Positions 20,983 to 24,262 of a DNA stretch of 32,000 bases are shown one piece after another (the first letter of the stretch is position 1; every line of letters starts with the position of its first letter). The notes under the pieces were generated by a model that was given only the letters and a program-made list of their open reading frames with translations, had not been told where the DNA came from and searched no databases. The translations under genes and the position numbers were made by a program. Where the stretch lies: the NCBI RefSeq assembly GCF_000195755.1, contig NC_002937.3, positions 840,001 through 872,000 on the forward strand, given 5' to 3'. This stretch comes from Nitratidesulfovibrio vulgaris str. Hildenborough (GTDB lineage Bacteria; Desulfobacterota; Desulfovibrionia; Desulfovibrionales; Desulfovibrionaceae).

Positions 20983-21933
20983 TCAGAAGAAATAGCCGGC
21001 GACGTAGCGTGTCGCCGTGGTGGCGAGCACGACAGCGAGCATCCACTTGATGAGGCGCGCAGGCACATGCTTCTGGCACCGTGCGCCAAGATACATGCCG
21101 CACATCCCCCCGAGGCCGAGCATGAGGCCGAGCATCCAGTCGGGGGATACAGAGAGGGCCGGATAGAACGGGGCGATGCCCATGTAGAACAGGACGCCTG
21201 CGATGGATGTGACGAAGGTGCCCATGAGTGCCGCCCCGGCTACGGTATGCACCGGAAGCCCGAAGACGGAGATGAGGAACGGGGCGATGATGGCGCCGCC
21301 GCCAATCCCGTACGTGCCGCCTATCATGCCCACCACGAGGCTGAGGATGAACGTGCCCTGCACCGGGAAGGTATGGGGTTCACCATAGAATTCGTATTCG
21401 ACGGTGCGCCATGTGCGACGGACGACACGGGTCGTGGGCAGGCTTTCGGGGGCGACGCCCAGCGCCTCGGCCTGGGCGCGGTGGCGGGCGGCAAGTTCGG
21501 CGAATCGTTCGTCAGCACGTGCCTTGCCATTGCGTGCGGGGCGCAGCAGGTCGCGTACCATGCGGAAACCGATGTACAGCAGTACCAGCCCCACGAAGAG
21601 CTTGAAGTCGCGGGCATCGGGAAGCCACCTCACCCGGAGGAAGGCGCCCACGAGTACACCGGGCAGTGTGCCCGCGACGACCACCCATACGAGAGGCCAG
21701 ACCATGCGTCCTTCGCGGATGTAGCGGGCGACACCGCTAGGGATGGCGACGATATTGTAGAACTGGTTCGTGGCGCTCACCGAGGGGGCGGTGTAGCCAA
21801 GCACGGACATCTGGAAGGGCAGGAGCAGAAACGCTCCGGAGATGCCTCCCATGGAGGCGAAGAACGATACGACGAAGGCGACACAGACGGGAAGCAGGGG
21901 ATTGGCTTCGATGCCGGCGGTGGGAAAGTACAT
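20983..21933 (-). CDS. TauE/SafE family anion (sulfite/sulfonate-type) exporter
   Basis: 316 aa from the ATG at 21933, with a GGAGG SD. It is a polytopic membrane protein with the duplicated 4-TM TauE pattern (FFASMGGISGAFLLLP ... VVGMIGGTYGIGGGAIIAPFL). Confidence 0.83.
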   Translation of the reverse strand: MYFPTAGIEANPLLPVCVAFVVSFFASMGGISGAFLLLPFQMSVLGYTAPSVSATNQFYNIVAIPSGVARYIREGRMVWPLVWVVVAGTLPGVLVGAFLRVRWLPDARDFKLFVGLVLLYIGFRMVRDLLRPARNGKARADERFAELAARHRAQAEALGVAPESLPTTRVVRRTWRTVEYEFYGEPHTFPVQGTFILSLVVGMIGGTYGIGGGAIIAPFLISVFGLPVHTVAGAALMGTFVTSIAGVLFYMGIAPFYPALSVSPDWMLGLMLGLGGMCGMYLGARCQKHVPARLIKWMLAVVLATTATRYVAGYFF

Positions 21934-21942
21934 GGGCACCTC

Positions 21943-22038
21943 CACGATTATTTGAGGCACGAAAATATCATGTATCGTGTCAGTGAATCTAGCGTACAAG
22001 CCCGAACTTGTCACGAGGTTTCCGCGCCCTGTATCATG
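21943..22038. promoter_or_regulatory. repeated TATCRTG / TGTATCRTG boxes in the divergent TauE / TOBE-regulator intergenic region
   Basis: TATCATG is at 21966-21972, TATCGTG at 21973-21979, and TATCATG at 22032-22038. The last two share the 9-mer TGTATCRTG. An inverted partial copy, CACGAT, is at 21943-21948. Confidence 0.4.
22008..22037 (+). promoter_or_regulatory. sigma70-like promoter TTGTCA-N18-TATCAT for the recombinase-fold/TOBE gene
   Basis: The -35 is at 22008-22013 and the -10 at 22032-22037 with TG immediately upstream. The -10 coincides with one TGTATCATG box. Confidence 0.4.
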
Positions 22039-22087
22039 CCGCCAACGTCTTTGCCGCCACACGGTTCATCGGAATAACGGAGATTTC

Positions 22088-23158
22088 ATGGAAGGTTCCC
22101 TCGAAACGCTTTTTGCCGGCGTCGCCTCAAGAGCCAATCCGGCAGGCATGCTCACCATTCCGGACGAGGTGCGTTGCCTCGATACCAACGACCTCGAAAA
22201 GCTCGAGTCCGCGTTCAGGGCATGGGTCGCCAAGGGACGAGGCGCAGGAGTCACGTTGGCACGCAGGCGTATTCTCGCTCTTTTCCTTCTCCTGCGGCAT
22301 ACGGGGGCACGTCTGGGAGAAGCCTCGGGTCTGGAGGGGCGGTCGCTTGTGCTTGAGAAGGGGCTGGTGAGGCTCGGCACGCCACCTCGCGATGTGCTCG
22401 TGGCGGAGACTGTGCTGGCAGAGATAGTGGGACTGGTCACCACGGGCGGAGGGCGTGAGTCGCCCGTGCTCCCGGAGTATCCCTTCGCGGTCGACCCGGG
22501 GCATGTGCGTCGCAAGTTCTACGCGTGCGCAGAGGCTGCGGGACTCGGGCGTGAGATGGGGTCACCATCGGTCTTGCGGCGTTCGCGGGCTGTGGAGTTG
22601 CTGCGGGGGGGGGTGCCTCTCCCCGCCGTCCAGCGGCTTCTGGGGCATGGCAATGCGGAACTCACCGCCGCCTATGTCGCCGTGCCGGATGACGCCATGC
22701 GTCGTATGGTGGGGGATGCCCTCGACAGGGAGCAGCGCAGAAGCAGTGCCCGCAACGCCTTCTTCGGCAGGGTAGAGGACGTCCGTATCGGGGATGTGCA
22801 GGCTTCAGTGCGTCTGCAGACACCGACCGGGCTCGAAGTGCTCGCCATCATCACCAATGACAGTCTCGAGGCCCTCGGTCTCGCACGGGGTGCCTATGCC
22901 CTCGCCGAGGTGAAGGCACCGTGGGTCGTACTGCAACGCGGTGAACACCCGCGCTCCAGTGCGGGCAACGTCTATCCGGGAGAGGTCGTCCGTGTCCGCA
23001 AGGGGGCTGTCTCGGCTGAGGTCATCGTGAGGCTCGATGCTGGAACGGAGGTCTGTGCCGTCCTCGCCGCTGACACTCTGGCGACGCTTGAACTGTGCGA
23101 CGGGGCTCATGTCTGGGTCGTGATCAATGCCCTCTCTGTCATCCTCAATGCCGTATAG
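22088..23158 (+). CDS. tyrosine-recombinase-fold (XerD-like) domain fused to two Mop/TOBE domains; TunR-like oxyanion-responsive regulator candidate
   Basis: 356 aa from the ATG at 22088, with a GGAG SD. Recombinase catalytic-domain boxes are present (LLLRHTGARLGEA; LLGHGNAELTAAYV), followed by two TOBE repeats (SSARNAFFGRVEDVRIGDVQASVRL.. and AGNVYPGEVVRVRKGAVSAEVIV..). Confidence 0.85.
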   Translation: MEGSLETLFAGVASRANPAGMLTIPDEVRCLDTNDLEKLESAFRAWVAKGRGAGVTLARRRILALFLLLRHTGARLGEASGLEGRSLVLEKGLVRLGTPPRDVLVAETVLAEIVGLVTTGGGRESPVLPEYPFAVDPGHVRRKFYACAEAAGLGREMGSPSVLRRSRAVELLRGGVPLPAVQRLLGHGNAELTAAYVAVPDDAMRRMVGDALDREQRRSSARNAFFGRVEDVRIGDVQASVRLQTPTGLEVLAIITNDSLEALGLARGAYALAEVKAPWVVLQRGEHPRSSAGNVYPGEVVRVRKGAVSAEVIVRLDAGTEVCAVLAADTLATLELCDGAHVWVVINALSVILNAV

Positions 23159-23399: not shown

Positions 23400-23747
23400 T
23401 CATTCGTGTCCGAGTTCCTTGCGCAGCCAGGCCTTGATCTCGGGCGTCGGTTCGAAAATTCCCTTCAGGTCACCGTATTCGTTGAGGAAGCTGTTCGCGA
23501 GTTGCTCGGGAAGGGCCACCGTTGCAAGTTCCTCGGCATGTTCCGAGTTGCGCCTCACAAGGCGTACTACGGGCCAGCCTGCCCATGTATCGACCACGAA
23601 GTAGGTGGATACGTCATCCTTCGAGCGCACAGGCGGATACTCCGCATGCCAGTCGTTGTTGCCCCATTCCAGATACATGGTAACCGCATGTTCAGGGGAA
23701 AGGTTCCAGTCTATATGGTGTCCGCTGAATGCCTTGAGGTCGTTCAT
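23400..23747 (-). CDS. hypothetical protein (115 aa, Trp/acidic-rich)
   Basis: The ATG at 23747 (MNDLKAFSGHHIDWNL) has a GGAGAG SD. Codon usage looks coding. I recognise no family. Confidence 0.65.
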   Translation of the reverse strand: MNDLKAFSGHHIDWNLSPEHAVTMYLEWGNNDWHAEYPPVRSKDDVSTYFVVDTWAGWPVVRLVRRNSEHAEELATVALPEQLANSFLNEYGDLKGIFEPTPEIKAWLRKELGHE

Positions 23748-24022: not shown

Positions 24023-24262
24023 ATGATGAAACCCGAAGAGTTCGCCCAGCGTTTCATACAAACCGCTGAACAGATGGGCCATGTGCTCACACCGGGAGGG
24101 AACGTCATCTGCGATGGCGGCAAGAACATCTCGCCCGGCAAGGTGCAGGTCCTCTACAAGCGCTACGGCGAAGGATGCGTAGGCTGCGCATCCAAAGAGT
24201 TCCAGAACGATGCGCGCGGGTTGAAGCTTTTTCGTAGCATAGCGGAACGCGCCCTCGGGTAG
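24023..24262 (+). CDS. small hypothetical protein (79 aa, three Cys)
   Basis: ATGATG start with a GGGAGAG SD. It lies in an otherwise empty 640-nt interval. I recognise no family. Confidence 0.55.
   Translation: MMKPEEFAQRFIQTAEQMGHVLTPGGNVICDGGKNISPGKVQVLYKRYGEGCVGCASKEFQNDARGLKLFRSIAERALG

Follow-up and report, generated by a model that had tools for sequence, protein, structure and literature searches.

A candidate TunR-type palindromic operator over the predicted promoter of a divergent TSUP transporter gene in Nitratidesulfovibrio vulgaris

A conserved 30-bp imperfect palindrome lies between a TauE/SafE (TSUP family) transporter gene and a divergently transcribed regulator gene in the window, the stretch of 32,000 nucleotides from N. 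vulgaris Hildenborough that was analysed here. The palindrome (21954-21983) very probably acts as one TunR-family operator, at which a dimer of the putatively oxyanion-sensing regulator would repress the TSUP gene. The original prediction had interpreted the same region through direct repeats of TGTATCRTG. These boxes are real, while the model built on them is wrong; judged from sequence and placement, what the region holds is a palindromic operator of TunR type over the predicted TSUP promoter. The divergent intergenic region measures 154 bp, as had been stated, and runs from 21934 to 22087, between the TSUP ATG at 21933 on the minus strand and the regulator start at 22088. The genes, the parts of the palindrome, and the predicted promoter elements are located as follows.

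20983-21933, minus strand: TauE/SafE (TSUP family) transporter gene, 316 aa, the proposed regulated target (Pfam TauE, 3e-43)
21954-21983: candidate operator, 30-bp imperfect palindrome GAGGCACGA-AAATATCATGTA-TCGTGTCAG, from matrix and ortholog conservation
21954-21962, plus strand: left arm GAGGCACGA, with the core GCACGA at 21957-21962; half-site 12.4 bits
21963-21974: A/T-rich 12-nt spacer AAATATCATGTA of fixed length, holding the first TATCATG (21966-21972)
21975-21983, plus strand: right arm TCGTGTCAG, its core covered by the second of the predicted boxes, TATCGTG (21973-21979); half-site 11.9 bits
21986-21991, minus strand: predicted TSUP -10 (TAGATT), from the promoter scan
22008-22013, plus strand: predicted regulator -35 (TTGTCA), 10 of 12 matches, overlapping the TSUP -35
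22009-22014, minus strand: predicted TSUP -35 (GTGACA; TTGACA in most orthologs), with TGTCAC invariant in syntenic orthologs
22032-22037, plus strand: predicted regulator -10 (TATCAT) within the distal box, from the scan; lost in the relatives L086-L088
22088-23158, plus strand: TunR-type regulator gene, 356 aa (Pfam Phage_integrase 5e-10, two TOBE 2e-24)

Conservation and placement of the palindrome

We compared 43 divergent regulator/TSUP regions, namely that of the window and 42 of other genomes, and found the element ACACGA-N12-TCGTGT with at most three mismatches in all 43, N being always 12. The family consensus, symmetrised from 41 unique sites without that of the window, is TTGACACGAATATTATAATATTCGTGTCAA, and the palindrome ranges over Desulfovibrionales, Desulfobacterales, Syntrophobacterales, and Nitrospirota. 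Scored with a matrix derived from the 41 ortholog sites without the window, the window site GAGGCACGAAAATATCATGTATCGTGTCAG reaches 22.0 bits, and the next best of the ~32000 positions in the 32 kb reaches only -2.7 bits, so that the site is the single match in the window. It is among the weaker members of the family (22 bits versus a median of ~33), and its left-arm core GCACGA carries one mismatch to ACACGA. The centres of the two arms are ~21 bp apart, which corresponds to two helical turns.

The palindrome is also kept in the syntenic relatives (L085-L088), which were found by exact-protein look-ups and whose regulators are 87% (L085), 68%, and 63% identical to that of the window; the sites score 22.3 bits in the 87% relative, 30.7 to 33.0 bits at 68%, and 26.0 bits at 63% regulator identity. 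Among these syntenic orthologs the sequence of the 12-nt spacer varies, while its length is kept. A repeat finder reported no inverted repeat in 21900-22120, since the arms are short and imperfect, and the palindrome came to light only through the comparison of orthologs. The relatives share the gene order murI, pyridoxal/HMP kinase, TSUP, regulator, two small genes, and atpC. The two small genes of the window, located between the regulator gene and atpC, encode 115 aa (~23400-23747, minus strand) and 79 aa (24023-24262, plus strand); they have no Pfam match, and their order is preserved in every syntenic relative.

The promoter scan of the window returned two promoter-like sites versus 0.4 expected, GTGACA-17-TAGATT on the minus strand and TTGTCA-18-TATCAT on the plus strand. 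Across the orthologs, TTGACA-17/18-TAnnnT is present on the TSUP strand in 37 of the 42 scored regions, and in most of these the palindrome begins 1-8 nt past the -10, the distance being 5 nt in the window. The syntenic orthologs keep GTGACA-17-TAATGT and GTGACA-17-TATGTT, and the 87% relative has a poorer -10, TTGATT. As the predicted -10 occupies 21991-21986, the TSUP transcript is predicted to start within the right arm, near 21979, and the palindrome spans approximately -5 to +26 of this predicted transcript. Relative to the predicted promoter, this is the position of a repressor. Moreover, the distance from the palindrome to the regulator start varies from 27 to 532 nt, whereas that to the TSUP -10 varies by no more than a few nucleotides, which suggests that the operator is tied to the TSUP promoter and not to the regulator's own. 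The two divergent -35 hexamers overlap back to back at 22008-22014 (TTGTCA on the plus strand, GTGACA on the minus strand), where two polymerases might compete.

We considered whether the palindrome forms an RNA hairpin, attenuator or riboswitch-like, in the 5' leader of the TSUP mRNA, a reading to which we give hardly any credence. The predicted TSUP leader (21934-21985, minus strand) does fold at -14.8 kcal/mol (z = -2.3 versus shuffles), and the fold pairs CACGAU of the right arm with AUCGUG from the CACGAT region beside the ribosome-binding site. However, the full hairpin would not be transcribed, because the predicted start lies within the right arm, and L086 and L088 have lost the partner of the CACGAT pairing. 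Across phyla the arm cores CACG/CGTG are kept as sequence and not merely in their pairing, and wherever the regulator gene occurs, this palindrome is found in front of unrelated transporter genes. An RNA family was likewise rejected, with no Rfam match at E up to 1.

The repeated boxes and their relation to the palindrome

According to the original prediction, the regulatory unit consists of direct TGTATCRTG repeats, a tandem pair controlling the exporter and a distal copy serving autoregulation. As a literal description of the sequence this is accurate. TATCRTG occurs three times on the plus strand, at 21966-21972, 21973-21979, and 22032-22038; the 9-mers TGTATCGTG (21971-21979) and TGTATCATG (22030-22038) are 59 bp apart; and CACGAT is found at 21943-21948. 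The tandem pair, described as near the TSUP start codon, measures 33-46 nt from the ATG, and the distal copy indeed falls on the predicted regulator -10 recovered by our promoter scan.

To weigh the repetition, we used 5000 dinucleotide-preserving shuffles of the 154 bp, counting any motif with one R/Y position. Some 7-mer reached three copies in 118 shuffles (2.4%), and some 9-mer pair appeared in 1123 (22%). In the 32-kb window TATCRTG was found nine times versus 3.3 expected, and TGTATCRTG with at most one mismatch was found eight times versus 7.8 expected, that is, without enrichment. The statistical weight of the boxes is modest, because the motif was picked post hoc, a free choice for which the shuffles allow.

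What is conserved is the inverted repeat ACACGA-N12-TCGTGT and not a direct repeat. The first tandem copy (21966-21972) consists wholly of spacer and changes in every relative, reading TATCATA, AATTTTT, and TGACATT in the three syntenic lineages, while the second box (21973-21979) contributes the right-arm core TCGTG, the only conserved part of the boxes, its two leading bases belonging to the spacer. The claim that the boxes mark the regulator's operator controlling the TauE/TSUP gene therefore holds to the extent that the tandem pair sits inside the palindrome, and fails for the direct-repeat motif. Phylogenetic footprinting over 46 orthologous intergenic regions, the check proposed with the boxes, recovered the palindrome as conserved, but not the TATCRTG layout. 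Specifically, TATCRTG coincides with a palindrome arm in 12 of the 46 regions, lies inside the 12-nt spacer in the window only, and occurs elsewhere in the intergenic region in four, which are the window, L085 with an identical offset, and two more whose offsets differ. The three-copy layout is found in no other of the 46 regions.

The distal copy was assigned an autoregulatory role, yet its half-site score is -2.8 bits compared with 11.9 bits for the true right arm. It is conserved only in the 87% relative and is gone from the 68% and 63% orthologs, which keep the palindrome. Its possible partner, CACGA at 22011-22015, is 17 nt away, where the family has an invariant spacing of 12, and the corresponding 30-mer, at 22008, scores -19.7 bits. 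As far as the sequence indicates, the distal TGTATCATG most plausibly represents the predicted regulator -10 and nothing more, and the geometry of the boxes does not indicate autoregulation. CACGAT at 21943, taken originally for a partial inverted copy, was rejected as a half-site as well: it scores -2.6 bits, overlaps the TSUP ribosome-binding site (CCTCC, 21939-21943), and is not conserved beyond the 87% relative. In the leader of the regulator gene, TGCCGCCA occurs as an exact repeat at 22037-22044 and 22052-22059, 15 bp apart; this repeat is probably due to chance, since it is not conserved in the 87% relative.

A genuine second site exists in related species. Other Nitratidesulfovibrio species (L001-L004, L089) carry a second full operator, TTGTCACGGATTATTTTATTTTCATGCC, which scores 15.5-22.4 bits, compared with 4.0 bits at the 99th percentile of shuffles. 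It stands at a distance of exactly 56 bp from the first, where it overlaps the TSUP -35.

L001:2854-2883: second operator, with equivalent places in L002-L004
L089:268-297: second operator

This second operator is absent from the window and its syntenic relatives. Measured on L083, whose sequence is identical, the best non-overlapping 30-mers of the window reach -18.7 and -19.7 bits, the latter score being that of the homologous 30-mer at 22008, in which CACGA (22011-22015) faces TCATG (22033-22037). By this comparison, the second site is either absent or decayed in the window. The half-site-like TTGTCACGAGGTT (7.5 bits) was rejected as an operator; it equals the conserved -35, and only its TGTCAC is kept in the syntenic relatives.

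These sister species supply a point in favour of the direct-repeat proposal, the right arm of their second operator, at the homologous place, being TCATGYC, close to TCATGCC in the window. Together with three real copies, the rarity of a 7-mer triple in shuffles, and the overlap of the distal copy with a predicted -10, this still leaves the direct-repeat reading very unlikely in view of the conservation pattern described above. We also think it very improbable that the distal TCATG and CACGA form a decayed but functional remnant of the sister-species operator; if they did, the remnant would be a lineage-specific, low-affinity D. vulgaris site coupling autoregulation to transporter repression.

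The regulator and its pairing with the palindrome

An exact protein look-up showed the regulator to be the same protein as AAS95251.1 and ADP85876.1 of Nitratidesulfovibrio (Desulfovibrio) vulgaris; it is annotated 'Molybdenum-pterin binding domain protein/site-specific recombinase, phage integrase family'. From the accession order and the adjacent atp operon, the TSUP and regulator genes would be approximately DVU0770/DVU0771. The protein consists of a degenerate XerC/D-like domain (residues ~55-210) and a ModE-like di-TOBE/Mop domain (residues 218-354). NCBIfam gives partial XerA, XerC, and XerD matches and a Mop domain match at 1.4e-27. Residues 56-208 align with the catalytic domains of XerA (5HXY, E = 3.5e-7) and XerD (1A0P, E = 4e-7), and residues 198-354 align with the Mop domains of ModE and ModG in the PDB, with E values of 2e-13 to 3.5e-19. 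A ModE-type winged helix-turn-helix was not found, the Pfam scan returning no helix-turn-helix domain, and the NCBIfam ModE model is covered over profile positions 115-260 of 263 only, at 79.9 bits versus a cut-off of 369. At the positions aligned with the molybdate ligands of ModE, which comprise S and R in SARN, T..S, and K in KAPW, all 81 of the 81 homologs carry the same residues.

The recombinase fold raises the alternative that the palindrome is a recombination site of the recombinase-like protein, or else is bound by another factor; we regard this as highly improbable. The inverted arms around a central spacer do resemble recombinase core sites, the fold is that of a tyrosine recombinase, and among the residues examined (75, 161, 164, 187, and 196) four catalytic positions of the window copy are still occupied by Arg, Arg, His, and Tyr. 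However, the His-II position is never His in the 81 homologs (E, D, N, S, or T instead), 22 of the 81 have another residue for the catalytic tyrosine, and 43 of them carry Lys in place of Arg-I. The window protein itself has Ser for His-II, with the hairpin Lys not aligned, which leaves the R-K-H-R-H/W-Y set incomplete. An active recombinase was rejected in view of this degenerate active site, and the fold has evidently been retained as a DNA-binding and not as a catalytic module. Additionally, the locus is stably syntenic in the relatives, with no sign of inversion, and the site and the regulator gene occur together in ~72 of the 80 loci listed.

These loci come from a scan with one genome per species, which gave at least 80 loci with homologs 36-53% identical to the window regulator; in more than 40 of those listed, a divergent TSUP ortholog lies directly upstream. 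Outside the regions used to train the matrix, the palindrome is found 100-250 bp upstream of the regulator gene in 29 of 37 further loci. For ten of the 29 we extracted the divergent ORF, and nine of these encode ~400-465 aa. Pfam identified the two of the nine that were scanned as MOT1-type molybdate transporters (PF16983, ~1e-50). Their N-terminal motif is also visible in most of the other seven, one of which reads like a translation in the wrong frame; the tenth, in L018, encodes a chromate-transporter-family protein.

L016, L019, L021, L026, L034, L036, L059, L066, and L074, at ~2780-2870: palindrome before a divergent MOT1-type gene, with no adjacent TSUP gene
L018:2810: palindrome before a chromate-transporter-family gene

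The palindrome thus travels with the regulator and not with one target, since the same site adjoins MOT1-type and chromate-type genes. This pattern links the operator to the regulator and points to a regulon of oxyanion transport. To our knowledge, MOT1-type and chromate-transporter-family targets do not figure in the abstract of the TunR report considered below.

Together, the placement of the palindrome and the domains of the regulator suggest the following mechanism. By analogy with ModE, a regulator dimer most likely binds the palindrome, with one degenerate recombinase-fold domain on each arm and the TOBE domains joining the dimer. Since the palindrome covers approximately -5 to +26, the bound regulator would block RNA polymerase, and the transporter gene would be repressed. 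DNA binding is most likely switched by the C-terminal ModE-like domain in response to tungstate or molybdate. An association with MOT1-type importers would suit an oxyanion acting as co-repressor, and one with exporters would suit an inducer.

Relation to known systems and significance

The TunR family of tungstate-responsive regulators was reportedly defined in 2013 in sulfate-reducing deltaproteobacteria. Its members are said to combine XerC/D-like DNA-binding and ModE-like effector domains and to recognise a 30-bp motif, one class reportedly activating modABC and another repressing TSUP transporters. The experiments were reportedly carried out in D. vulgaris Hildenborough, and the protein characterised is said to be the modABC-adjacent activator paralog. 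The system in the window resembles the TSUP-repressor class in every feature compared, and no differing feature was found here: the regulator has a Xer-type N-terminal domain and a ModE-like di-TOBE C-terminal effector domain, the ~30-bp palindromic motif overlaps the predicted promoter of a divergent TSUP gene, and the host is a sulfate-reducing deltaproteobacterium of the same species as the model organism of the TunR study. By its sequence features, the window system is of TunR type, a kind already described, and the arrangement is ordinary, since it has been described for sulfate-reducing bacteria before.

Two better-known families share part of this design. ModE of Escherichia coli (PDB 1B9M, 1O7L) has the same di-Mop/TOBE module, aligning over residues 198-353 at E = 2e-13; of the two SARN motifs the first is conserved, together with T..S and KAPW, and the second is degenerate in both proteins. 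In both cases a palindromic operator lies at an oxyanion transporter promoter, the binding here being putative. ModE differs in its winged helix-turn-helix, in place of which the present protein has a recombinase fold, and the operator sequence and the 12-nt spacer differ as well. XerC, XerD, and XerA with their dif-type sites share the catalytic-domain fold and the layout of two inverted arms flanking a central spacer. In contrast to these recombinases, the present protein has a degenerate active site, largely lacks the N-terminal core-binding domain (~55 residues precede the match), and is probably a transcription factor. The spacer is 12 nt here, whereas Xer core sites have spacers of 6-8 nt.

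For mutation or footprinting, the functional unit would be CACGA-N12-TCGTG at 21954-21983 and not the TGTATCRTG repeats, and a genome scan for TGTATCRTG pairs would define the wrong regulon. The comparative data lend modest support to the view that the TSUP protein handles molybdate-like oxyanions, since the regulator/operator pair elsewhere adjoins MOT1-type and chromate-transporter-family genes. The locus thus appears to hold a recombinase-derived transcription factor, a putative tungstate/molybdate sensor controlling a TSUP transporter in a sulfate reducer, of the kind described in 2013, and the result matters mainly as a correction of the direct-repeat reading.
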